The notes beneath the pieces are model-generated. The model was not told the DNA's origin. It saw nothing but the letters and a program-made list of their open reading frames with translations, and made no database searches. 64,000 bases of DNA. Origin: an uncultured Fibrobacter sp. Lineage in GTDB: Bacteria; Fibrobacterota; Fibrobacteria; Fibrobacterales; Fibrobacteraceae. Every line of letters begins with the position of its first letter. The stretch's first letter is position 1. Shown here in pieces: positions 29,906 through 42,305 of this stretch. The stretch lies in the NCBI GenBank assembly GCA_964501065.1, contig CAZCRF010000006.1, forward strand, positions 204 through 64,203, given 5' to 3'. Made by a program: the position numbers and the translations under genes.

Positions 29906-31822
29906 ATGTTGTCTGAGCTTCTCTATATCGTTTCCGGTTTTTTGCTGGGTCTTGCCTTTCAAGGCGGGCTGTTCCTATTTCTCATCCCCTTTGCGCTTGT
30001 CGGCGTGATTCTCGCGCGGCTGAACAGCCCGAGCCTTCCCGATTCGGACACGAAGGCGACAGTCCCCATTTTGCGCGCGAATCGGCAGACGGATGCAGTG
30101 GAAGTCGGGCGCATCCTGCGCCCCGCGATGACGCAGACGGGAATCGTCTTGGCGGCGAAGGATACGTTCACCGCCTTTCCGGGCGAGGGGGAAGCCGCCT
30201 TCGACAAGCTCAAGGACAATGAAATTTGGCAAAAGCTCGAGAGCGATTTGGATCCCGTCTATCTAGGCGTCTTGCGTTCCCTTGAAAAGCTCATCCCCAA
30301 GGCGCATTCCGTCCTCTTCTTCTTGAAGTCGGGCGACGGAAGGGCTTTCCGCATCCGCCAATTCGCGTCCCTGTCGGAAGATTCCGTGAACAGGTCCGTC
30401 TTGATTCCCGACGGTTCCGGTGTCGTCGGGCAGCTGGCCGGTCGCGACCTTTTGCGCATTTTGGAGGGCGACTTGCCTAGCGGAAAGAGCTTGGGGTATT
30501 ATGTGGGGATTCCGCCCGTCCATTCTGTCGCCGGGGTTCCCCTCTTCAACGGCAAGAAGGAGCGGGTCGGCGCCCTTGTCGTCGATTCGGAAGAAAGGAG
30601 CGCGTTCGGGGCGGACATCATCCCGGTCTTGGAAAATTTTGCAGCCATGTTTTACATGCTCACCTACAAGAGTTTCGCTTCGGCTTCGAATTTCCGCGAG
30701 AAGAAGAAGTTTTACGAACTTGCCGCCTACCAGCAGAAGTTCTTCAAGACGACCCTCCTCCGCGACACCTACAAGGAAATTTTCGATTACGTCAGCCGCA
30801 ATTTCCAGGCGGATCGCATCATGATTTTGGTCTTTGACCTGCCGGACAAGGCCGCGCAATCGCACAATTCGTCGGAGAAGGAATTGGGGACTGTCGCCTT
30901 TTGCCGCGGGGAGGACGAATCCAGCTTTGAAGGAATGCATTTTTCCCTTTCCGACAAGGGCATCTTGCCGCTTTCGATGATGCAGCATACGGCGACGGAG
31001 CGCGTCTTCAGCGGGCGCGTGTCCGATTACGTCCCGCGCTTGAACGACGGCGAAGTCCGCAACCACTCGCTGCGCTATCTCTTTGTGCAACCCAGCTCCA
31101 TGACGATGCGGAACGCCGCCTTGAACGAGCCTTCGGAATTGGCCATTTGCCTGGAACGCCGTTACCCGGAAAAGCTCGGGCAACTCGAAAAGGACTTGCT
31201 CCGATTCGTTGTGAACATCGCCTATTTCGCCTACCAGCGCGGCAAACAATTTGAACATGAGCAGTTCGCCATTTACCACGACGAGTTGACGGGGCTTTTG
31301 AACAGGCGCACGATTGACGAGGAAGTCGCCAAGTTGAATCAAGTCCACCAGGTGAAGAACGTCGGCGTGATGATGATGGACATCGACCACTTCAAGAAAT
31401 TCAACGACACCTACGGGCATGCCGCCGGGGATATCGTGTTGAAGGAAGTCGCCGCGCGCATTTCGTCCGTTGCGGAGAGGGGGGACAATCTTTTGGCGAG
31501 ATACGGCGGCGAGGAATTCTTTGTCGCGATGCCGGGAGCGACGGAAAAATCCCTTTTGGACACGGCGGAGCGGATTCGCCTGGCCGTGTGCTCGAAGCCG
31601 TTCGACTTGCACCAAGGTTCGCCGATAGACGTCTCGGTGAGCATCGGATGTTTTTTGGCGGCGGAAGATTTTCACGGGGAAATGACGCGGGCCGTCCATT
31701 ATGCGGATGACGCGCTTTACAAGGCGAAGGAAAGCGGCAGGAACCGTGTCGTCCGCTACGAAAGCCGCCTTGAGGATGACTTCTCGGAAGATTCGGGCGA
31801 GCGGGATGTCCCGGGAGAATAG
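29906..31822 (+). CDS. Membrane-anchored GAF-domain diguanylate cyclase
   Basis: DELTGLLNRR, DIDHFKKFNDTYGHAAGD, ARYGGEEF and ADDALYKAKESGRN. Two GAF-like segments. Confidence 0.93.
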   Translation: MLSELLYIVSGFLLGLAFQGGLFLFLIPFALVGVILARLNSPSLPDSDTKATVPILRANRQTDAVEVGRILRPAMTQTGIVLAAKDTFTAFPGEGEAAFDKLKDNEIWQKLESDLDPVYLGVLRSLEKLIPKAHSVLFFLKSGDGRAFRIRQFASLSEDSVNRSVLIPDGSGVVGQLAGRDLLRILEGDLPSGKSLGYYVGIPPVHSVAGVPLFNGKKERVGALVVDSEERSAFGADIIPVLENFAAMFYMLTYKSFASASNFREKKKFYELAAYQQKFFKTTLLRDTYKEIFDYVSRNFQADRIMILVFDLPDKAAQSHNSSEKELGTVAFCRGEDESSFEGMHFSLSDKGILPLSMMQHTATERVFSGRVSDYVPRLNDGEVRNHSLRYLFVQPSSMTMRNAALNEPSELAICLERRYPEKLGQLEKDLLRFVVNIAYFAYQRGKQFEHEQFAIYHDELTGLLNRRTIDEEVAKLNQVHQVKNVGVMMMDIDHFKKFNDTYGHAAGDIVLKEVAARISSVAERGDNLLARYGGEEFFVAMPGATEKSLLDTAERIRLAVCSKPFDLHQGSPIDVSVSIGCFLAAEDFHGEMTRAVHYADDALYKAKESGRNRVVRYESRLEDDFSEDSGERDVPGE

Positions 31823-31825
31823 CTG

Positions 31826-33298
31826 ATGTTCACCTTGTTGGATTGGATTATTCTGGCGGCTTACATCCTGCTCTCCGTGGCTGTCGGGCTTTGGGCTTCC
31901 CGTGGGCGGAAAAATTACGGGGAATACATGCGGGGCGGCGGATCGATGCCGTGGATTGCCGTCGGCATCAGCTTGATCGCGACTTCCGTCAGCGCGACGA
32001 CTTTTCTCGGGAATCCGGCGGAGTCTTACTTGAACGACATGAGCTTCCTCATGAACAACGCAGGTGCGTTGATCGCCATCGGAGTCGTCGGATGGGTCTT
32101 CATCCCGAGAATCCGTGCGGCGAAGATTTCTAGCGCTTACGAACTTTTCGAAGTGCGCTTCTCCCCGGGAGTCCGGCGATTGGCGGCCGTCTTTTACTGC
32201 CTGCACTTGCTGCTTCGGATGGGAATCCTCTTGTATGCGCCGTCCTTGGTGCTCGCTCCCATCTTGGGAATCGACATTCGGCTGGCCATTTTGATCACGG
32301 CTGCGGTTTCCACCCTTTACACTTGGTTTGGCGGATTCAAGGCGGTCGTCTGGACGGATGTGATGCAATTTGCAGTCCTTTTCGGCGGCGGAGTCTTTGC
32401 CCTCTGGGTCTTGTCCCGCGGAGTCGGCGGCTTCGATGCGATGTTTGAAATGGCGGCCGCGGCGGGGAAAACGAAGTTCTTCGACGCCTTGGACTGGAAT
32501 CCGGCGAATGCGCGCAATTTGCTTTCGGCGGGAATCGCCTATGCGTTCACGGAAATTTCCATCCGCGGCTGCGACCAGCAATTCGTGCAACGTTACTTGA
32601 GCTGCGATTCGGTGAAGTCGGCGAACGCGTCGAGCGTCCTCAGCATGGTGCTCGGCGTCTTTGTCTCGGTTCTCTTCTTTCTAGTCGGTGCGGGGCTTTT
32701 TGTGTATTATCGGGTGGCGGCTGTCCATCCGCTTCCCGCCTCGATTGCCCCGAACGAAGTCTTCCCTTATTTCATCGTGCACTCCCTTCCCGCCGGAGCC
32801 ACGGGGCTTGTCGTCGCCGCCATTTACGCTGCGGCGATGAGCAGCCTTTCGAGCGCCATCAATGCGCTCGGGAACACGACCGTGAAAGACATTTTGCTGG
32901 TCCGGTCGGAAAGCGCGGCGACCTTGTCGAAGGCGCGACTGTGGACCGTGCTCTGGGCGCTTCTCAGCACGGGGGCGGCTTTCCTCGCCGTTTCGATGCA
33001 GAGCGATTCCCTCTTGAAAAGCGCGCTCTTTTTCACGGGACTTTTTACGGGGCCTCTCCTCGCCCTGTTCCTCCTCGCCTTCTTCGCTCCCAAATTGAAG
33101 ACTTGGCAAATCTGTGCGGGAGTCTGTTGTGGAATGCTCTCCATTTTGCTTTTCAACCGGATACCGGCCGTCCCCGCATACCGTCCGCCGTTGGACGGGA
33201 TGCTCTGCTTCTTCTGGAATCCGGTCGTTTCCTGTATCGTGACGTTTTTCATTTCCCGGGGGGTGGGGCTTTTTCGGCGAGGTTCACATGACGGATGA
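31826..33298 (+). CDS. Sodium:solute symporter (SSS family)
   Basis: SLIATSVSATTFLG, GGFKAVVWTDVMQ, DQQFVQRYL and AAAMSSLSSAINAL. Confidence 0.93.
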   Translation: MFTLLDWIILAAYILLSVAVGLWASRGRKNYGEYMRGGGSMPWIAVGISLIATSVSATTFLGNPAESYLNDMSFLMNNAGALIAIGVVGWVFIPRIRAAKISSAYELFEVRFSPGVRRLAAVFYCLHLLLRMGILLYAPSLVLAPILGIDIRLAILITAAVSTLYTWFGGFKAVVWTDVMQFAVLFGGGVFALWVLSRGVGGFDAMFEMAAAAGKTKFFDALDWNPANARNLLSAGIAYAFTEISIRGCDQQFVQRYLSCDSVKSANASSVLSMVLGVFVSVLFFLVGAGLFVYYRVAAVHPLPASIAPNEVFPYFIVHSLPAGATGLVVAAIYAAAMSSLSSAINALGNTTVKDILLVRSESAATLSKARLWTVLWALLSTGAAFLAVSMQSDSLLKSALFFTGLFTGPLLALFLLAFFAPKLKTWQICAGVCCGMLSILLFNRIPAVPAYRPPLDGMLCFFWNPVVSCIVTFFISRGVGLFRRGSHDG

Positions 33299-33791
33299 AG
33301 AAGATTTGCGTTGGATGGATGCGGCTCTCCGCGAAGCGGCGCGCGCTTACGATTTGGGGGAAGTCCCCGTCGGGGCCGTCATCGTCAAGGACGGCAGGTG
33401 CATCGCCCGCGGATTCAACCAGGTGGAATCCTTGAAAGACGCGACGGCCCATGCGGAAATCATCGCCATCGGAGCCGCGTCTGCGTCCCTTGAAAATTGG
33501 AGACTCGACGGGACGACTTTGTATGTGACTCTCGAACCTTGCCCCATGTGCGCGGGGGCAATCCTGAACAGCCGCGTCTCCCGCGTCGTTTACGGTTCTC
33601 CCGACACGCGCTTCGGCGGATGCGGCACGACCATCGACGTCCTGTCGGGCAATTCCTTGGGCCAAAAGGTGCAAGTGACCGGGGGCGTCAAGGCCGATGA
33701 ATGCCTGGGAATCTTGAAGGCCTTTTTCATGGAAATGCGCGAAAAGAAGGGCGATTCCGGGAAAAAACCGATGCGTCCGCCCCTTTCTTGA
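33288..33791 (+). CDS. tadA: tRNA adenosine(34) deaminase
   Basis: GEVPVGAV, TAHAE and TLEPCPMCAGA motifs. Confidence 0.95.
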   Translation: MTDEEDLRWMDAALREAARAYDLGEVPVGAVIVKDGRCIARGFNQVESLKDATAHAEIIAIGAASASLENWRLDGTTLYVTLEPCPMCAGAILNSRVSRVVYGSPDTRFGGCGTTIDVLSGNSLGQKVQVTGGVKADECLGILKAFFMEMREKKGDSGKKPMRPPLS

Positions 33792-33793
33792 AT

Positions 33794-33801
33794 TATTTTT
33801 G
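33794..33801 (+). promoter_or_regulatory. Putative -7 promoter element TATTTTTG, 4 nt before ATG 33806
   Basis: TATTTTTG-CCAT-ATG has the same geometry as the 13447 site. Confidence 0.55.
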
Positions 33802-33805
33802 CCAT

Positions 33806-34645
33806 ATGGTTCGTTCTGCCCTGTCGCTTTCGACTTTGATTTTGGCGTTGTCCTTGACCGCTTGCGATGATAGGACCGTCTCGCTTGGATTCAACACGCA
33901 AAATCCGACGCCGGACGATTACAGGTTGACCAGCTCTTTGCACGTCCTGCTTTCGCCGGATTCCGACAAGCAGTCGAGTCCCGAATCGATGAGTGCGAAT
34001 GTCGACGTCCAAGTGCATTCGGAACTCCTTTCCGCCTATGATGACGGTACGGGACGCTTCCTTCTCCGCGTGGATTCGGCGAACTATTCTTCGGACAGCC
34101 GCTCGGTGGAAGAAACGGACCACGTCGAGCGTTTTTTGAAAACTCAGGCCGTCCAATACAAAATGGGCGGCGACGGGGAGATGAGCGCTGTCCGGTTCGA
34201 CGACGTGGTCTCCTTCCCGGATATCGGCGACGTGGATATTCGGAACCTGTTCTTGAAAGTCCAGCCCATTTTGCCGGGCGCTCCCGTTTCCGTGGGGGAT
34301 TCGTGGGAACGCCAGCAGGCGATTGTCGGCGACGATGGCGGACAGAACGTCGTCTATAAGTGGTTCAAGCTTTCGGATGTCTTCGAAAAGGACGGGATTG
34401 AACTGGCGAAATTGGACATGAACGTCCGTTACCGGCAGCACGGCGAGGACGACGCGCAGATAACGGAAAGCCCGGACTTCGTCCTCGGCTCCGGGGTGAT
34501 CCTTTTCGACATCCGCGCGGGGAAGATTGTCGAAGGCGATTTGCAAATCGAGGGGCGCATCCGGGTGATAGAGAAGAAGTCGTCCGACACGATTCCGGAT
34601 TTGCGCGTGCGGCAGAAAATCTCCATCCGGAAGGTCGGCGGATGA
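33806..34645 (+). CDS. Hypothetical lipoprotein
   Basis: MVRSALSLSTLILALSLTAC lipobox. Beta-rich body. Confidence 0.8.
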   Translation: MVRSALSLSTLILALSLTACDDRTVSLGFNTQNPTPDDYRLTSSLHVLLSPDSDKQSSPESMSANVDVQVHSELLSAYDDGTGRFLLRVDSANYSSDSRSVEETDHVERFLKTQAVQYKMGGDGEMSAVRFDDVVSFPDIGDVDIRNLFLKVQPILPGAPVSVGDSWERQQAIVGDDGGQNVVYKWFKLSDVFEKDGIELAKLDMNVRYRQHGEDDAQITESPDFVLGSGVILFDIRAGKIVEGDLQIEGRIRVIEKKSSDTIPDLRVRQKISIRKVGG

Positions 34646-35388
34646 AGTTTTTTCCCTTTTTTCTGTTTGCCCTTGCCGGTTTCGCCCTTGCCGAAACGCC
34701 GTTCTCCGCGGCGAAGAATCACGATGAACCCCGTTCTGAAGTGACGCCGTTCCCCGCGGCGGAGAATCACAAGGTGTCCCTTTCGGAAGAATCCTCCCCA
34801 TACCTTCTCGAATCGAGCTTTGTCCTCGCGGAAGACGACACGCTTGAAGTCGGGCCGGGAGTGAAAGTCCTTTTCGGCGGCTATGCGCGGTTCTATTTGA
34901 GGGGGACAGTCCGGATCGAGGGGACGGCGGCGAAGCCCGTCGCCTTTTTGAACGCGGATTCGGCGGAATCCTGGAACGGGCTTTACATTTCGACGGGCGA
35001 GAATTTCTTCCATGCGAAGCACCTGCGGGTGGAGAAATCTTTTCGGAACACGGTCGTGCGTTCCCGTGGAATTTTCGAATCCGTCCGTTTTGAAAATAAT
35101 TATTACGGGCTTTGGTTTGAAAACTCTCCCCGGATGGAGCTTTCCGACTGCGAATTCCTGCAAAACCGCTTCGCCGTTTCGGTTGGAGTGGGCAAGGTGA
35201 AATTCCGGAATACCAAGATCCATGACAACATCTTCGGGATTTACCTTTATTCGGGGACGACCTTCGACGGCGACGCCGGGAGCGTCGTGAACAATTTGGA
35301 AGCGAATGTCCGGAAGGAGTCCGAATTCATCGGAAAGGGCCGCAAGATTTCCAAAGACGTCTGGCAGCGGATTGAGTCGAGCTTCTGA
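34642..35388 (+). CDS. Secreted right-handed parallel beta-helix repeat protein
   Basis: Signal peptide. LEVGPGVKVLF, GTAAKPVAF and WNGLYI, then repeated xxNxxGIYL-type coils. Confidence 0.75.
   Translation: MKFFPFFLFALAGFALAETPFSAAKNHDEPRSEVTPFPAAENHKVSLSEESSPYLLESSFVLAEDDTLEVGPGVKVLFGGYARFYLRGTVRIEGTAAKPVAFLNADSAESWNGLYISTGENFFHAKHLRVEKSFRNTVVRSRGIFESVRFENNYYGLWFENSPRMELSDCEFLQNRFAVSVGVGKVKFRNTKIHDNIFGIYLYSGTTFDGDAGSVVNNLEANVRKESEFIGKGRKISKDVWQRIESSF
34696..34770 (+). repeat. In-frame 27-bp direct duplication with 48-bp period
   Basis: acgccgttctccgcggcgaagaatcac (34696-34722) versus acgccgttccccgcggcggagaatcac (34744-34770), 25/27 identical. Confidence 0.85.
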
Positions 35389-35399
35389 GGGCGGGAATC

Positions 35400-36290
35400 G
35401 TGGAAGAGTCGTTTCGCAGGGCAATTCGGAAGATGACGGGAACCAGCCTTTTGGGCTTGGGCTTTTCCAAGGATCGCGCCGCTGAACTTTCGGAGCTTTC
35501 CCAGGCGATGGACGTGCGGTGGTCCATCGCTCTTTGCGAGCATTTGAACGCCGTGGAGTCGAACCCGGACGGAATGATGTCGGGCGGGGAATTGGTTTCG
35601 AACGGTTCTGCGGCATGGAAGCTTGCCGCCGAGGATTTTCCCGTCATTTTGGACGAATACCGTCAAAAGTTCGCCGAGTTCCGCGCCAAGTGGATGCAGC
35701 GGTTCTCGACGGATGAAATTTGCCGGATGTTGTTGCAGAATCAGTATCTCCTCCGGGACGATGAAGGCTGGTTCTACGCCGCTCCTGCGGAAAAGTTGCG
35801 CAACCTTTATTTTTCAACGGTCCATTTGATGGTGGGCGATGCCGAAAAGCTCCTGGTCAATTTGTCCGGTCGCGTGGAGCACATCCAAGAAAAGCTTTCC
35901 CGCCTCTGGTATCGGGAATGCGCACTCGACGCTTCGTCAAAGGTCTTGCCGACCATCGAAGCGTCCTTGCGTTCGGGGGAATACGCCCTGACTTCCCGTT
36001 TGAGGGCGTCCTTGGCCCAGGTCGCCCGGAAACGCTTCATGTCGGAATTCAAGCCGTCGCGGGAGCGGAAGCGGTTTGCCCAAGCGGATTCCTGCGCGAG
36101 GAGCGTGGGGGCGAACCTTTCGAACATCGCTTACGAAAATGCCTTTTTGGCTTTCACCGACGACTTTTGCGATTACGCTTGCGGCCTCACCCTGTTTTTA
36201 GGCGGATGGTATCGCGACAAGTGGCTTTTGTATCTGCGCGGGTTTTCGCGCGGGCAGCTCGACCTCTTTACCCCAAAAAACGTGGAATGA
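35400..36290 (+). CDS. Putative DUF3348-like protein (Zorya type III ZorF-like)
   Basis: ELSQAMDVRWSIALCEHLN and ALDASSKVLPTIEASL...LAQVARKRF echo DUF3348 segments as I recall them. First of four coupled genes. Start is GTG 35400 or ATG 35433. Confidence 0.55.
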   Translation: MEESFRRAIRKMTGTSLLGLGFSKDRAAELSELSQAMDVRWSIALCEHLNAVESNPDGMMSGGELVSNGSAAWKLAAEDFPVILDEYRQKFAEFRAKWMQRFSTDEICRMLLQNQYLLRDDEGWFYAAPAEKLRNLYFSTVHLMVGDAEKLLVNLSGRVEHIQEKLSRLWYRECALDASSKVLPTIEASLRSGEYALTSRLRASLAQVARKRFMSEFKPSRERKRFAQADSCARSVGANLSNIAYENAFLAFTDDFCDYACGLTLFLGGWYRDKWLLYLRGFSRGQLDLFTPKNVE

Positions 36291-38071
36291 ACATGACAAA
36301 ATTTCTCAAGACACTCCTCCTTTCCCTAGTCGGCGCAATCGTCCTCGTCGCAGGGGCGTTCTATTTTGGCGCCCCGCTTTTCGGTTGGCTTATCATTGCC
36401 GCCATTTTCGGGATATACCTGATTTCTTCGATTCGCATTTCCCTCGGGATCCGTGCGGACGAAAAGGCGCGGGCGAAACTCGAAAAGTATGCGTCGCTTT
36501 TTGAACGGGGGCGGACCCCGGCGGAATCGGAACTGGACAGTTCGAACGCCGTCGATTCGCGCATCCGCTTTTTGAAATACTCCAAGGGGAATTCCGCATG
36601 GAACGCGGAGGACTTGCCTTACCTCAAATCGGCGTGGTCTGCCGTCGAGGATTCCCAGGCAGAGAGCCACGGCGGCGTAGTCGTCTTGCTCGGCCTGATG
36701 GGCACTTTTTTCGGTTTGATGCTTTCCATCAATGCGGCCGGCTCGGCGATAGACACGAACGTGACTTCCGAAACGACTCTCGGCATCATCCAGAACATTT
36801 TTTCCAGCATGAAGGGAATTTTCGGTTCCTCCCTTTGCGGACTTTTTGCCGCCTTGATTTTGAACGCGGTCCATTCCATTTACGCCACTGCCCACGAAAA
36901 GTGGATCGCGGATTTGGATGCGTTCACCTTGCTCTGGCTTTTGCCGAAAAAGTCCTCCGGCGAAAGTGGGATTCTCGCCCAAATCGGGAACTTGGTGGAA
37001 TCCCTCGAAAAATCGGACGCCGCTCGTGCGAAGAATTTTGAAGAGTTGGCGGAAACCTTGCGTGCCGCAGAAGTTTCCCGTTCGGAAATTCTCGAGAAGA
37101 AGTTGGAATCCTTGCAGTCTGCGGGGGAGGCCGCCTTTGCGAATGTGCAACGGGAATTTGCGGAATCTTTCGCCAAGACGGCGGACAGTGCGCTGCAAAA
37201 TTTGGAAGCGGTGCAGAGGGCCTCTCTCGAAAATTTGTCTGCCGTGCAAAAATCGGCGGCGGAAGCTTTCGCGCGTTCGGGCGCGTCCGCCACGTCGGAA
37301 ATTCGCGATTCCCTGTCGCAGGTGATTTCCGGCCTCGCTGCGGAAATGCAACGTCTTTCGTCTAGCGTGCAATCGATTGAATCCGGAGTCGTCGAAGGCC
37401 TCGAAAAGGAAATTGCGAACCTTTCGTCGAATGTGGCCGCATCCATTTCCGGGCATTTGGAGCGGCAGATGCAAAGCTCCGGGGAAAATTGGAACACCTT
37501 CATGGAGTCGCTCCGCGCTTCTGCGGAAAAGGTCGCCGAGGCGGAGCAGAAAGGGCTCGAATCCCTCCGCGCCGTGGCGGACGAGGTCGCCGCCCGTGCG
37601 AACGATTCCACTGTCGGGCTTTCGGATGCGGTCAAGGGCGAAATGGAATCCCTGGCGCAAAAGGTCCAAGCTTCTTTCTCGGAACTCGCGAAGTCCTCGG
37701 AAAGCCTCGTGGCTGCGGAACAGTCCCTGGTGTCCGGAATCGCTTCCCGGGAGGAAAAGGAAAATGCGGCGGCGCAGGCCCTTTCGGAGAACATCGCGGA
37801 AACGGCGAAGCTCATGCGCGTGAACCAGTCGGAGCTGGCGGCCAATCTGGAAATGTTCGGCCATGGCGTCGAAGCGGTGCTTTCCAAAATTTCGGGCGAT
37901 GTGCCGGAACGCGAGAACGAAAAGAATTTCGTGGAACAACTCAACACGGCCCTCCAATCGTTCCAAGAACGTTCGGGCGAAGTGCTTTTGGAAAACGCTC
38001 TCAAGACTCAGGAAATCCTCCTCGAAATTTTGGACCAGGTGCAAAAGTCCCCGGCGGGGAAGGCGGAATAG
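36287..38071 (+). CDS. zorA: ZorA-like MotA/TolQ/ExbB-family ion-channel protein with about 390-aa helical tail (DUF802 type)
   Basis: Two N-terminal TMs. LLGLMGTFFG and MKGIFGSSLCG channel helices. Long Ala/Ser/Glu-rich helical tail. ATGA overlap with the upstream gene. Confidence 0.75.
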   Translation: MNMTKFLKTLLLSLVGAIVLVAGAFYFGAPLFGWLIIAAIFGIYLISSIRISLGIRADEKARAKLEKYASLFERGRTPAESELDSSNAVDSRIRFLKYSKGNSAWNAEDLPYLKSAWSAVEDSQAESHGGVVVLLGLMGTFFGLMLSINAAGSAIDTNVTSETTLGIIQNIFSSMKGIFGSSLCGLFAALILNAVHSIYATAHEKWIADLDAFTLLWLLPKKSSGESGILAQIGNLVESLEKSDAARAKNFEELAETLRAAEVSRSEILEKKLESLQSAGEAAFANVQREFAESFAKTADSALQNLEAVQRASLENLSAVQKSAAEAFARSGASATSEIRDSLSQVISGLAAEMQRLSSSVQSIESGVVEGLEKEIANLSSNVAASISGHLERQMQSSGENWNTFMESLRASAEKVAEAEQKGLESLRAVADEVAARANDSTVGLSDAVKGEMESLAQKVQASFSELAKSSESLVAAEQSLVSGIASREEKENAAAQALSENIAETAKLMRVNQSELAANLEMFGHGVEAVLSKISGDVPERENEKNFVEQLNTALQSFQERSGEVLLENALKTQEILLEILDQVQKSPAGKAE

Positions 38072-38074
38072 TCC

Positions 38075-38719
38075 ATGGCGAAGCGTCGAGAAGAAAGCCA
38101 TTGGCTGGTGCTGACGGATTTGACTGCGGGGCTTCTCGCCCTGTTCATCTTGGCCTTTGTCGCGATGACGACGATGAAGGAGAAAAAGGCGGAAGCCCTG
38201 ACGCGCACGGAGCAGGAAGTCGTGAGCTGCCAGGAGGAAATGCGCCGCGTCGCCAAGGAGCGCAACGCCCTGCTCTCCCAAAGCCTCAAGGCCCCGCTCG
38301 AAAAGGGCGTCATTGCGCTCGAAAACGGCAACATCCAAATCCAGGCCTCCTTCCTGTTCCCGCGGAACGGGGCGGACTTGACCGTGGAAGGCGCGAGCAT
38401 CATCCAATCCATCGGCAAGGGACTTTTGGACGTTCTCGATTCGGGGGACGCCATCATGGTCTCCGGGTTCACGGACGACACGCCGACGAATTCCCCGACT
38501 TACACGAACTGGAATCTTTCGACGGAACGCGCCGTGAACGTCGTCAAGACTCTCATCCGGCAAGGTTTCCCGGCGGACAGGCTTTTTGCGGCGGGATTCG
38601 GCGAGGAGCATCCTCGCGTCCCGAACACCAGTGAAGCGAACCGTGCCCAGAACCGCCGCGTGGAAATCGGAGTGACGTCCATCCGCAAGTCGGAACCTGT
38701 CGGGGATTTTTCGAAATGA
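38075..38719 (+). CDS. zorB: ZorB-like OmpA/MotB-family protein
   Basis: WLVLTDLTAGLLALF TM with Asp15. MVSGFTDD, NWNLSTERA, AAGFGE and NRRVEI peptidoglycan-binding motifs. Confidence 0.8.
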   Translation: MAKRREESHWLVLTDLTAGLLALFILAFVAMTTMKEKKAEALTRTEQEVVSCQEEMRRVAKERNALLSQSLKAPLEKGVIALENGNIQIQASFLFPRNGADLTVEGASIIQSIGKGLLDVLDSGDAIMVSGFTDDTPTNSPTYTNWNLSTERAVNVVKTLIRQGFPADRLFAAGFGEEHPRVPNTSEANRAQNRRVEIGVTSIRKSEPVGDFSK

Positions 38720-39399
38720 ACGGATGCGCGGAGAATTTGTACGCGGAACTCAAAGCCCGTGTCGATGCGCTTCGCAAGAATGGCCGCTTGCCGTATTGGA
38801 AGCTCTCTTACGCGGAGTTCTCCCTTTCCCGTATCGGGGATTACATCGCCGTCCGCAGGGAGGGGGAGGCCCTGGAAATGGGAAGTCGCCTGTCTTCGTG
38901 GATCGATTTCCATGAACGGGAGCTTGCGAAAACGGAAAAGCGCCCCCCTCGGAAAATTCCCCTCTGGAATTCCGAAGCCATCGAACGCGGACTAGAAGAA
39001 ATCCGGAAAAAGCTCCAAGCGAAGAATTATCTCATCCCGGTCGCAGAACGCATCTCCTTTGCGAACGGAATGGAACGCGCCCAAAAATTGCTCGCCCAGT
39101 CGCAATGCGACGCGGCTCATGCGGAACTCTTTTCGCTGAGGACGCAATTGGTTTCCAGGCTTCACCGCTCTTACCGCGCACGTGCCGCGATGATTCTTTA
39201 CAGCCGCCATGCGTCGGGATTCGGGCGTTCGCCCAAAGGGGAGGTCGTCGGCCCGTATAATTCCGAGCGAACTTTGGAATCGGCTCTTTCACTTGTCGGG
39301 GAGCGGGACGCCATTTGGGTGGAAGATTTCTTTGAACTTTACGAGGCTCTTTCGCAGATGACGGAAAGGCTCTCCCCCGTTGAAAAGAAACGGCGTTGA
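38716..39399 (+). CDS. Putative DUF2894-like protein (Zorya type III ZorG-like)
   Basis: GPYNSERTLESALSLVGERDAIWVEDFFELYEAL resembles the DUF2894 GPLNS...L...YL..F..Y...L motif. ATGA overlap with zorB. Confidence 0.6.
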   Translation: MNGCAENLYAELKARVDALRKNGRLPYWKLSYAEFSLSRIGDYIAVRREGEALEMGSRLSSWIDFHERELAKTEKRPPRKIPLWNSEAIERGLEEIRKKLQAKNYLIPVAERISFANGMERAQKLLAQSQCDAAHAELFSLRTQLVSRLHRSYRARAAMILYSRHASGFGRSPKGEVVGPYNSERTLESALSLVGERDAIWVEDFFELYEALSQMTERLSPVEKKRR

Positions 39400-39530: not shown

Positions 39531-42284
39531 ATGAGCCTTTTCAAAATCCTATTCGTAGCCGGAGTCTCTTCCGTCGCGGCGGTCAGTTATCCTGTCCAGG
39601 AATTCCGCTTGGGCATCGGGAACTCGGACCGAAGCATGACGGGAGTTGCGGCCGGATCTTACGTCTCTTCCGCCACATTCCTCGGGACAAAGTCGCAAAA
39701 GTGGCATTTGAATTACGTCAGCGCGGGAATTCACGAAATCGTCAATTCCGAGACTGGGCAGCTCTTGACGAACGACGGCGGACTGGCCGTCACGGCGGCG
39801 GACAAGGATGCGGAAAACCAACGTTGGTTGATTCGGGCTGTGGAAAACGACTTCGACGGATATGCGCTTTATTACAAGGTGGTCTGCGCATCGGATTCGA
39901 GCCTCGGCTTGACCTTTTACCCGAACAGCAACTCGTTCCGCGTGGAGTCTTACACGGGGGCGGCTTATCAAAAATTCAAGTTGAACCTGGACGGGCTAGA
40001 AGGCTATGCGGCCAATGCGCTCACTCCATCCGGCCAAAAGGCGGGGACTATCGGGGGGCTGCTCGGCGAAGTCGTCTACGTCTCGACTGCGGACGATTTG
40101 GAAACGCAGCTGAATTCCGTCGGAGCGCAAACGATTGTCATCACGGCGGACATCGACATGCAAAAAAAGAGCAACACGCGCGTCCGCGACAACAAGACGA
40201 TAGTCGGACAATACGGGAACCACACGATTTACGATTCCCAATTCCGTACAAACGATGCGTGGGGAACTGTGGGCGAGGTCCCGTCGGACAACATCGTCTT
40301 CCGCAACTTGAAGATGGTCGCGAAGAACGCTCCGAACCGCATCCTCATCAACATCTGGTCTTCGCGGCAGATTTGGATTGACCACGTCTATTTCGAATCC
40401 CAACTCTCTTACGACAGGACGGGGAACGGTCAAGACGAAGTGGGGAAATTCATCTGGATAAACACGCCCTATGCAAATTATATGGATTCCCTCGACAGAT
40501 ACCGCAGCCCGGACTATGTGACGATTTCATACTCGCATCTCAAGAACCGCTATTGGACAGTCGCCTACGGCACGCAGAACGATGAAATCTCGCGCGACCG
40601 CACCACGCTCCTTTTCAACTGGTGGGACAAGAACGTCCGCCGCTGCCCGCAACTGGGCAATGGCAGCGCACACATCTACAACAACTATTTTTCCGCCTAT
40701 GGGACGTCGTCCAACGGCAGCGCCACGTCCGGCATCATCGGGGGGGACGGCTCCGACATGGTCTCCATCGGAAACCGGTTCAACGGCTACACGAAAAGCC
40801 AGGCCTTGATGATGGGCGGCGGGACGGATCCCTCCCGGGACTCCTATTCCTACCTGTCGGAATCCCTCGACGGCACGCCTTCGCCGGTGAGCTTTTCCCC
40901 GAAGGTCTCGTCTTCCTGGAAGCCCGAAGAGACGAATTACGGCTACTCCCTCATCGACGCCTACAATTCCAAGGGGACGGACGTGAAGGACTTTTGCACA
41001 AAATATACGGGCGACCAGACGACCGCCGATGGGATGAAGTACGTGACGGACGGCGATTTTGAAAATTGGGTGACGGTGACCTTTCCGTCGCCGTTCCTCG
41101 AAAGCATTTCCGTGGGGACGGATCCGGTGAACGGCAAGACTGCCGCTACGATGGACGCGAAGCATTCCGTCTCCATCCGGAACGTCAACAGCGGACTCTA
41201 TCTTTCGCCCGGGAATGCCCAAGCTCAAAACGGGACGGATGTCGAACAGAGCGGAATGGCGACTGCTTGGACCTTGACTCTTTCCGAGGAAGACGGCTAC
41301 TACTATTTGAATCCCGAAGGCTCGGAACTCTTCCTCGCGGCGGAAGGGGCTTCGAGTTCGAACGGTACGAACATCTCCGTTCGGGAAAAGTCCGCTGCGG
41401 ATGCATTCCTCTTCAAGTTCGTCTTGGGCGACGACGGGACTTTCAACCTGACGACGGAAATTTCGGCGGACAAGAGCTGTCTCGGCGTCGCGGCGGGGTC
41501 CAAAGATTCCGGGGCGACAGTCGTCGAATGGGAATGCAACGGTTCCGATGACCAGAAGTGGGTGGTGACGTCTCTGCCGAATGTGAAACAGGGGACTCTG
41601 TTCGCGGATTTGAAAGTCTACGACTTGGAGCGGGACTCCGCTTGGAACATCCTTTCCGAAGTCGGCGTGGGCAGCTTGATTTTCGGAGACCGCGACGTGA
41701 CTTTTGCCGATATTCCCGACTCCTTGGCCGGCGCAGAACTCATCAGCCCCGCTTGCGATTCCAAAAAATTCACCTCGGACACTTTGGCGACCTTCACTGC
41801 GGCGAAGAAAATGACGGTTTATGTAGCGGTGGACAGCCGCTTGACGGCGATTCCCGATTGGCTTTCGTCTTGGACGAAAACGGACTTGACCGTGACGAAC
41901 AGTGCGAACGTCATCTTTGACGTTTATGCGTTGTCCGCTTCCGCCGGGGAAGTGGTCTTTTTGGGTTCGAACGGGCAGACTGGCGGATGCGTACAGTATT
42001 TTGTCTTGGGCGTTCCCGAAAAGACGACGGCTCTTGTCGAACAAAAGCCTTTCGGCGGCTTTTCCGCGCGCTTTGACGGGGACGTCTTTCTCGTGGAGAA
42101 CCGTTCCGCATCGACCGCCTCCGTTTCGTTGCACAGGCTTTCCGGGGAAAGAATCGCCGGTTTCTCCGTGGACGGTCGGAATGCCGGGAGAGTCCGGCTC
42201 GGTGGGGCGACTCCCCGCGGCGTTTATTTCGTCCGCGTCCGCACCGCGTCGGGAAATGCGACGTTCCGGGTCGTTCGGCAGTAA
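39531..42284 (+). CDS. Modular pectate/pectin lyase (PL1) with two ricin-B (CBM13-like) domains and a T9SS-like C-terminal domain
   Basis: Signal peptide, NKTIVG, NIVFRNL, IWIDH and RRCPQLGNGSAHIYNNY. Q-x-W repeats (QKWHL, NQRW, DQKW). C-terminal GVYFVRV. Confidence 0.88.
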   Translation: MSLFKILFVAGVSSVAAVSYPVQEFRLGIGNSDRSMTGVAAGSYVSSATFLGTKSQKWHLNYVSAGIHEIVNSETGQLLTNDGGLAVTAADKDAENQRWLIRAVENDFDGYALYYKVVCASDSSLGLTFYPNSNSFRVESYTGAAYQKFKLNLDGLEGYAANALTPSGQKAGTIGGLLGEVVYVSTADDLETQLNSVGAQTIVITADIDMQKKSNTRVRDNKTIVGQYGNHTIYDSQFRTNDAWGTVGEVPSDNIVFRNLKMVAKNAPNRILINIWSSRQIWIDHVYFESQLSYDRTGNGQDEVGKFIWINTPYANYMDSLDRYRSPDYVTISYSHLKNRYWTVAYGTQNDEISRDRTTLLFNWWDKNVRRCPQLGNGSAHIYNNYFSAYGTSSNGSATSGIIGGDGSDMVSIGNRFNGYTKSQALMMGGGTDPSRDSYSYLSESLDGTPSPVSFSPKVSSSWKPEETNYGYSLIDAYNSKGTDVKDFCTKYTGDQTTADGMKYVTDGDFENWVTVTFPSPFLESISVGTDPVNGKTAATMDAKHSVSIRNVNSGLYLSPGNAQAQNGTDVEQSGMATAWTLTLSEEDGYYYLNPEGSELFLAAEGASSSNGTNISVREKSAADAFLFKFVLGDDGTFNLTTEISADKSCLGVAAGSKDSGATVVEWECNGSDDQKWVVTSLPNVKQGTLFADLKVYDLERDSAWNILSEVGVGSLIFGDRDVTFADIPDSLAGAELISPACDSKKFTSDTLATFTAAKKMTVYVAVDSRLTAIPDWLSSWTKTDLTVTNSANVIFDVYALSASAGEVVFLGSNGQTGGCVQYFVLGVPEKTTALVEQKPFGGFSARFDGDVFLVENRSASTASVSLHRLSGERIAGFSVDGRNAGRVRLGGATPRGVYFVRVRTASGNATFRVVRQ

Positions 42285-42305
42285 GTGAATTTCCAATCCA
42301 ATCCG

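Follow-up and report, generated by a model that had tools for sequence, protein, structure and literature searches.

The six-gene locus

We describe a locus of six consecutive genes, here called A to F, in a 64,000-nucleotide stretch of DNA from an uncultured Fibrobacter sp. (contig CAZCRF010000006.1); the whole stretch is referred to as the window. The first two genes encode a lipoprotein and an exported beta-helix protein. The other four form a block that resembles the Zorya systems, in which a ZorA-like and a ZorB-like subunit (D and E) are encoded between two cytoplasmic proteins (C and F). The coordinates are collected in Table 1. We hold it to be likely, with a probability of roughly 60%, that the locus is one conserved six-gene operon built from two older modules, the pair A+B and the type III Zorya-like block C-D-E-F.

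Relatives have been sampled by searching 41 of them with each protein, by running tblastn with all six proteins on about 100 loci, and by searching 226 genomes of the phylum. All genomes of the genus have the order A-B-C-D-E-F, as do the other Fibrobacteraceae genera that were sampled, g4 and g16 excepted, and a second family (f4). The order recurs in about 90 Fibrobacteraceae species. In the window, A and B overlap by 4 base pairs (bp), B and C are separated by 11 bp, C and D overlap by 4 bp, D and E are separated by 3 bp, and E and F overlap by 4 bp. These junction sizes and the gene ends are identical to those in an earlier reading of the sequence, the original prediction, when the open reading frames (ORFs) of the window are read again. 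The median junctions across the ~90 species are −4 (A to B), 9 (B to C), 7 (C to D), 3 (D to E), and −1 nucleotides (E to F), and the junction of A and B is at or below zero in 87 of 90 loci.

The block is present in one copy in all 19 genomes examined in the genus. E is 86–94% identical within the genus, a conservation at least equal to that of tadA, the gene found directly 5′ of A in nearly all Fibrobacteraceae loci (both ORFs are resolved in 82). The C family is found in 151 of the 226 phylum genomes, all of them within the class of the window, where it is single-copy and nearly universal, with two genomes lacking it. A “phylum-wide” four-gene block has been ruled out, as none of the genomes sampled outside the class has a C-family gene. 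The surroundings of the block contain no mobile or defence genes, and the patchy, mobile, or defence-island distribution that is typical, if not strictly defining, of anti-phage systems has not been observed. By its sequence distribution, the block is a vertically inherited, single-copy core locus of the Fibrobacteraceae and not a mobile defence island.

Table 1. Genes and promoter-like element of the locus, in window coordinates.
Feature	Position	Strand	Basis or remark
tadA (tRNA adenosine deaminase)	33288-33791	+	Pfam MafB19-deam 3.6e-37, dCMP_cyt_deam_1 2.5e-31
−10-like hexamer TATTTT	33794-33799	+	−12 to −7 relative to the ATG of A (33806)
A, lipoprotein, 279 residues	33806-34645	+	Lipobox LTAC, signal peptide
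B, exported right-handed beta-helix protein, NosD/CASH-like, 248 residues	34642-35388	+	Pfam, signal peptide
C, cytoplasmic all-helical protein, 296 residues, GTG start	35400-36290	+	In the place of the type III Zorya DUF3348 protein
D, ZorA-like subunit, 594 residues	36287-38071	+	PADLOC ZorA3, hhalign, scan for transmembrane segments
E, ZorB3-like subunit, 214 residues	38075-38719	+	PADLOC ZorB3, Pfam OmpA
F, cytoplasmic protein, remote DUF2894 relative, 227 residues	38716-39399	+	hhalign of the broad family alignment

The Zorya-like genes

Protein E matches the PADLOC model ZorB3 (PDLC00651) with 153.6 bits and an E-value of 1.3e-45, spanning 13–203 of 215 positions, and hhalign scores it against ZorB3 at 100% (2.3e-39). 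It is ~38% identical to the ZorB3 proteins of Ralstonia and Aquabacterium. Its OmpA-type peptidoglycan-binding domain has been identified with Pfam OmpA (PF00691; 61.3 bits against a cut-off of 27.2, E-value 1.2e-16), and the best matches among solved structures are the periplasmic domains of PomB and MotB (1e-17). E has a single transmembrane (TM) segment with the residues T14-D15-L16, which are invariant in 91 orthologues and are aligned to the FGDLM motif of the proteobacterial ZorB3.

Protein D matches PADLOC ZorA3 with an E-value of 1.4e-07. In hhalign it is matched to the betaproteobacterial DUF802/ZorA3 family at 96.7% (3.3e-10) over 172 columns, which cover the TM region only, and its best sequence match in the PDB is ZorA (8qyh, E-value 0.05). 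D contains four TM segments, among them the MotA/ExbB-type core (LLGLMGTFFGL), and continues with a coiled-coil tail of ~350 residues; the motif LLGLxGTFxGL is conserved among the orthologues. The acidic TM residue of E together with the MotA-type TM3/TM4 core of D points to a putative ion-driven motor.

F and its close orthologues have no direct match to a Pfam or PADLOC profile (for F itself, PADLOC gives none even at an E-value of up to 10), and PDB sequences gave no useful match to F either. The C-terminus of F has the conserved motif GPYN...DPIWVEDF..LY. A broad alignment of 64 F sequences, obtained from an exhaustive profile search (110 representative clusters, 1.84 billion proteins), is matched by hhalign to DUF2894 at 85.7% (E-value 5.4e-06), while the DUF3348 control gives 0.2%. 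An F alignment limited to the Fibrobacteraceae matches DUF2894 weakly. Two or three remote F relatives also match DUF2894 models weakly (E-values of 0.001–0.01), and one of these follows an OmpA gene.

C has no match in Pfam, in PADLOC (even at an E-value of up to 10), or among PDB sequences. The structure of C is predicted with confidence as a long helical bundle (mean predicted local distance difference test, pLDDT, of 85; predicted template modelling score, pTM, of 0.82), and a fold search of this model against the PDB gives nothing below an E-value of 0.26. A profile search for homologues returned close Fibrobacter proteins only, with no added annotation. Profile–profile comparison of C with DUF3348 gave no match, whether a small alignment or one of 98 sequences was used. 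The DUF3348 model (PF11828) matches nothing in the genome at an E-value of up to 10 and none of 18 C-family members. The resemblance between C and the DUF3348 protein is one of position, size, and helical nature only. Pfam and PADLOC searches with C and F, together with the fold search of C, show no recognisable nuclease or other effector domain.

The lipoprotein and the beta-helix protein

The N-terminus of A contains the sequence LSLTAC at residues 15–20, and Cys20 is invariant in 16 aligned orthologues, as expected for a lipoprotein. A itself has no match in Pfam, DUF6263 included, and none in PADLOC even at an E-value of up to 10. A homologue outside the class (L126:6419-7279) scores 27.9 bits for DUF6263, above the cut-off of 26.7, and matches the A-family hidden Markov model with 5e-27. 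Judged by its sequence, A appears to be a divergent representative of a lipoprotein family that is spread over the Fibrobacterota and related to Pfam DUF6263. The profile search has identified the A family in 151 of the 226 genomes. The AlphaFold model of A (pLDDT 82.5, pTM 0.78) is mostly beta, with a barrel-like fold and two helices. A fold search with this model gives moderate to weak matches to the lipid-binding barrels MTP, ApoB, and LmcA (template modelling scores of 0.37–0.49). All of these scores are below 0.5, so a lipid-binding barrel is taken as a lead and not as an assignment.

B passes the Pfam Beta_helix threshold (PF13229; 30.3 bits against a cut-off of 25.9, 3.9e-07), matches NosD with 1.9e-04, and has a signal peptide in its translation. 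The closest parallel to the two genes is found in pairs of a DUF6263 lipoprotein and a NosD/CASH-type beta-helix protein, in which the 4-bp-overlap pairing of A and B is kept across classes. In this comparison the homologue of A passes the DUF6263 threshold and B passes that of Beta_helix, whereas A itself has no direct match.

Pair without motor and motor without pair

Within the class, every A-family gene that has been found adjoins the block, next to C. In the genus g21 of a sister order, all 10 genomes with an A-family match have A immediately in front of C, with B missing, and the architecture is A-C-D′-F, where D′ consists of one or two N-terminal TM segments and the coiled coil only. 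In one of these genomes A and C overlap by 4 bp. Outside the class, homologues of A and B co-occur in three other classes, in genomes without any C-family gene. The three loci examined there, from three families, contain the A-B pair with the same 4-bp overlap (L125:6496-8075, L126:6419-8001, and L127:5959-7526). The original prediction had offered A and B as possible novel accessories of the motor complex. The linkage of A to the block is strict within the class, but the pair stands alone in three other classes, and the independence from zor-like genes that would speak against such a role is therefore found, at a greater phylogenetic distance.

The opposite arrangement has also been observed. 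Complete C-D-E-F blocks without A and B are present in the family f2, probably in the family f3, and in Betaproteobacteria, and the genus g4 has lost B alone and kept the rest. With complete motors lacking the pair, the claim that A and B are dedicated parts of the motor is not supported. In the families f5, f6, and f7 and in the genus g16, the locus is C-D′-F without a ZorB. The C-terminal tip of D stays conserved across all of these forms, motor-less D′ included, and the tail tip, C, and F thus point to a persistent functional core.

Based on their distribution, A and B are best seen as an older autonomous envelope pair and not as dedicated motor subunits. A functional link between A and B and the products of C to F is nevertheless plausible, since A is attached to C in two different architectures. 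A cannot simply have the periplasmic domain of ZorB as its partner, given that it is coupled to motor-less versions too.

Some features of these loci have been noted in addition. The stand-alone A-B pair adjoins a gene for a class I/II aminotransferase. In two of the three stand-alone loci, the pair lies opposite a gene for a Crp-like regulator, after which another beta-helix protein of larger size is encoded; L126 also has a PAS-GGDEF-HD-GYP gene that abuts the pair. The motor-less loci come from other orders of the class and from one Fibrobacteraceae genus (L028:7390-10240, L030:7404-10061, L121-L124, L128, and L129). In one order, the motor-less locus is in a conserved neighbourhood with genes for a pseudouridine synthase, a Ser/Thr kinase, and a KaiC-like ATPase, and with holA, greA, and argJ. 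A lipoprotein gene before C in one high-GC genome (G039) has been considered as proof of an ancestral A and rejected, as hhalign gives only 40% and the neighbour is missing in G035; the arrangement in g21 is the stronger evidence on this point.

Putative promoter, terminators, and operon status

The original prediction placed a promoter-like box at 33794, ahead of the lipoprotein gene. A generic sigma-70 scan does not flag this TATTTT box. Of 91 related loci, 73 have a TAnnnT hexamer at the identical distance in front of A, with the consensus TATATT. Before B, C, D, E, and F, the hexamer is found at that spacing in 0–4 loci only, and GAG/AGG-type ribosome-binding sequences are found there. In the window's own genome, TAnnnT-N6-ATG is counted 504 times, compared with about 230–360 times for other spacings, and 48% of these sites open an ORF of at least 120 residues, compared with mostly 20–30% at other spacings. 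TAnnnT followed by exactly 6 nucleotides and ATG is over-represented about 1.5–2x in the source genome. This suggests that promoters of the leaderless type are frequent here; no paper on such promoters in Fibrobacter has been found in the literature. Because of the cross-species conservation and the genome-wide spacing peak, the box at 33794 is more than a chance occurrence. It fits a genome-typical leaderless promoter that is present, within the block, before A only, and the earlier assignment is borne out to this extent. The last codons and the stop codon of tadA overlap the region immediately 5′ of the box. The distance from tadA to A is 14 nucleotides in the window and ranges from under 0 to 440 nucleotides among related loci.

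Terminator-like hairpins inside the block (at 34926, 36353, and others) are every one within coding sequence, and the region contains as many of them as expected by chance (24, compared with 23.9 after shuffling). A strong terminator is first encountered at 42305, downstream of the pectate lyase gene that follows F. This agrees with the original prediction, in which no terminator was seen between the genes. Regarding the six-gene operon that had been proposed, what stands is a conserved, tightly packed unit in ~90 species with a single promoter-like element before A. That the six genes are one operon is well supported, if indirectly, by the junctions, the pattern of the box, and the co-detection of the proteins described in the next section.

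Expression in Fibrobacter succinogenes S85

One of the E orthologues is identical to the “putative chemotaxis MotB protein” of F. succinogenes S85, which allows the block to be mapped onto the S85 genes FSU_0284 (F), FSU_0285 (E), FSU_0286 (D), FSU_0287 (C), FSU_0288 (B), and FSU_0289 (A, labelled “putative lipoprotein”). FSU_0286, which has the ExbB/MotA motif, is labelled “fimbriae-associated domain protein”. The labels of FSU_0285 (“chemotaxis MotB”) and FSU_0286 (“fimbriae-associated”) are probably misleading. In the envelope proteome of axenic S85, five of the six products have been detected, namely FSU_0284, FSU_0285, FSU_0286, FSU_0288, and FSU_0289 (PMC6851124). FSU_0286 was detected with 21 peptides, and the changes between glucose and cellulose were small (PMC6851124). 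The locus is expressed in pure culture.

Relation to type III Zorya and other envelope motors

As defined by Payne et al. (2021, PMC8565338), type III Zorya is zorAB with a gene for a DUF3348 protein on one flank and one for a DUF2894 protein on the other. The block C-D-E-F shares with it the gene order, similar protein sizes, and overlapping junctions. The homology of E with ZorB3 is strong, that of D with ZorA3 is good, and F remotely resembles DUF2894 in its C-terminal part. On the other hand, C has no detectable similarity to DUF3348, two exported proteins are encoded upstream in the Fibrobacter operon, and the tail of D is shorter (594 residues in total, compared with about 700–1030). The Fibrobacter locus also differs in being fixed and syntenic across the whole family, with a C-D-F core across the whole class. 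With three of the four components and the layout type III-like, the block is best described as type III-like and not as a clean member of the type. The Zorya-like character of the four distal genes, as originally predicted, is accordingly upheld in this more specific form.

When plasmids and chromids were searched with E as the query, loci of the form DUF3348-DUF802-OmpA family-DUF2894 were identified in Ralstonia, Cupriavidus, Paraburkholderia, Caballeronia, and Aquabacterium. The canonical type III locus is located on chromids of Cupriavidus, Paraburkholderia, and Caballeronia. Type III Zorya may be core-like in Ralstonia, Cupriavidus, Paraburkholderia, and Caballeronia too.

In the type I ZorAB complex (Hu et al. 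2024, PMC11946911; PDB 8qyh and 8qyy), the MotA-like subunit has a long cytoplasmic coiled-coil tail, as D does. The MotB-like subunit, with its TM aspartate and peptidoglycan-binding domain, would likewise correspond to E. By comparison, the sequence similarity to type I is marginal, and the partners in Fibrobacter are small helical proteins and not ZorC or the ZorD helicase/nuclease. The flagellar stators MotAB and PomAB share with the block the periplasmic domain matched by E, the TM aspartate, and the GxxGT-type motif of D, but the flagellar context is missing at the Fibrobacter block.

Another envelope system for comparison is Tol-Pal (tolQRA-tolB-pal), in which the genes for an ion-driven inner-membrane motor stand together with those for a periplasmic protein and a lipoprotein, both of which are active on the envelope's outer side. 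The analogy lies in a motor of the same superfamily that shares a single operon with exported partners. However, A and B are not homologous to TolB or Pal, and the exported proteins are encoded first here and last in Tol-Pal. Also, D has a cytoplasmic tail, and the Fibrobacter block has no TolA-like subunit spanning the periplasm.

A model for the operon

In the model that we favour, the leaderless-type promoter directly before A would drive the six-gene operon. The first module would be the lipoprotein with its barrel-like beta fold and the exported beta-helix protein, which are self-standing in other classes, and the second would be C-D-E-F, the distant relative of type III Zorya. D and E are expected to form an ion-driven 5:2 inner-membrane complex, by homology with the solved ZorAB and MotAB complexes (PMC11946911). 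In E, the invariant Asp15 would serve as the ion carrier, and the OmpA-like domain would hold the complex to the peptidoglycan. The coiled-coil tail of D would extend into the cytoplasm, where its C-terminal tip may engage the helical proteins C and F. A and B would take part in the same envelope process from the periplasm or the outer membrane, as optional add-ons and not as integral subunits. They probably became fused upstream of the Zorya-like block early in the class, and the arrangement would have been lost or changed several times since.

Several observations weigh against this reading. C has no detectable similarity to DUF3348 (1.2–1.5% in hhalign with the small and the 98-sequence alignments), and the match of F to DUF2894 spans the C-terminal 59 columns only. 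A promoter may be present inside B, and since the gap between tadA and A is only 14 nucleotides, read-through into A from tadA, or from the GGDEF and transporter genes upstream of it, is possible. Among the Fibrobacteraceae, the genus g16 (7 genomes) no longer has A, B, or E and retains D without its channel part, and the ion motor is therefore not indispensable in some lineages. Furthermore, the type III Zorya of Stenotrophomonas nitritireducens protected E. coli, with the plaquing of several phages reduced (PMC8565338), and the canonical type III locus is present on 135 Ralstonia megaplasmid records. Since type III Zorya is both protective and conserved over Ralstonia megaplasmids, fixation alone is no argument for excluding defence.

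The strongest alternative is a bona fide anti-phage system, in which the block is a type III Zorya variant fixed in the lineage and A and B widen its sensing at the cell surface. We regard it as a real possibility, if a minority one. The closest characterised relatives are the type III systems with anti-plaquing activity in E. coli (PMC8565338), the ZorB3 match of E is strong, and Zorya systems are usually expressed constitutively, which is also the pattern in S85. Against this, the block is single-copy and syntenic across the class without mobile or defence-island neighbours, no nuclease or effector domain is recognisable in C or F, and where the motor is missing, C, the tail of D, and F are still kept, in conserved neighbourhoods of housekeeping genes. 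A standing cellular role is favoured by these motor-less descendants together with the fixation, synteny, and strong conservation of the locus, and we lean towards envelope surveillance or envelope maintenance as the function of the locus.

A broader proposal, which we put forward tentatively and consider rather doubtful at present, is that the type III Zorya-like machines of the Fibrobacteria are an ancient, vertically inherited apparatus for coupling the envelope to the cytoplasm and are not primarily involved in phage defence. Its heart would be the membrane-anchored coiled-coil tail with C and F, which persists even in lineages that lost the ion channel and ZorB, and its periplasmic input would be the DUF6263-like lipoprotein, with or without a glycan-binding beta-helix protein. 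If this is true, the defence activity of the proteobacterial type III Zorya would be secondary, either derived from or a sideline of an envelope sensor with a housekeeping role.

It is unlikely that A and B are dedicated envelope-side subunits, a sensor or anchor in contact with the periplasmic domain of ZorB, in a six-component machine. Such a role would agree with the strict and conserved operon linkage, with translational-coupling-type junctions in two families, and with the absence of any A orthologue away from the block within the class, and both proteins are exported to the compartment in which the OmpA-like domain of ZorB resides. The pair, however, is found alone in genomes without any of the genes C to F, full motors lack it in f2, f3, and Betaproteobacteria, and g4 has dropped B and retained the rest. 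In g21, A is coupled to a version without channel and ZorB, so the partner there cannot be ZorB, and the role suggested for A and B in the original prediction calls for revision. We consider it improbable as well that an independent A-B envelope module merely shares a promoter with the block, the gene order being kept by inertia: the pair is autonomous elsewhere, beside an aminotransferase gene rather than a motor, in other lineages the block functions with its four genes only, and the upstream neighbours (tadA, transporter, and GGDEF genes) are as tightly packed, but the A-C linkage persists across orders in two architectures, one that includes B (f1 and f4) and one that lacks it (g21), for which inertia alone is hard-pressed to account.

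Type III is the least studied of the Zorya types, the functions of its two small proteins are not known, and no accessory exported components have been described for it in the literature. Here, a whole family of cellulose-degrading gut bacteria has a relative of this type fixed in its core genome and joined to an envelope pair. The sister lineages provide a natural “deletion series” with the motor without the pair, the pair without the motor, and the tail and its partners without the channel. With this series one can ask whether ZorAB-type motors act beyond phage defence and which of the parts interact.

Flanking genes and apparently mislabelled records

Upstream of A, the window contains the genes for a GGDEF protein and an SSS-family transporter, followed by tadA (29906–33791), spaced by a 3-nucleotide gap, an 11-bp overlap, and a 14-nucleotide gap to A. 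This packing is as tight as that of the A–F block, and the order is kept within the genus. A longer transcription unit from the GGDEF gene onward, with an internal promoter, is possible.

The gene after F (39531–42284, 131 nucleotides past F) codes for a pectate lyase that carries ricin-type lectin domains and has a sorting-type tail at its C-terminus. This gene was not found in the 8-kb flanks of any related locus and is therefore placed outside the conserved block.

Six of the loci (L038, L040, L041, L043, L044, and L045) are 77–78% identical to the Fibrobacter-type locus and are filed under unrelated names. The names on these contigs are Eggerthellaceae, Methanomethylophilaceae, Senegalimassilia, Alistipes onderdonkii, Sodaliphilus, and Oscillospiraceae. 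Since all six come from a single “cleanbin” series, the records look mislabelled.

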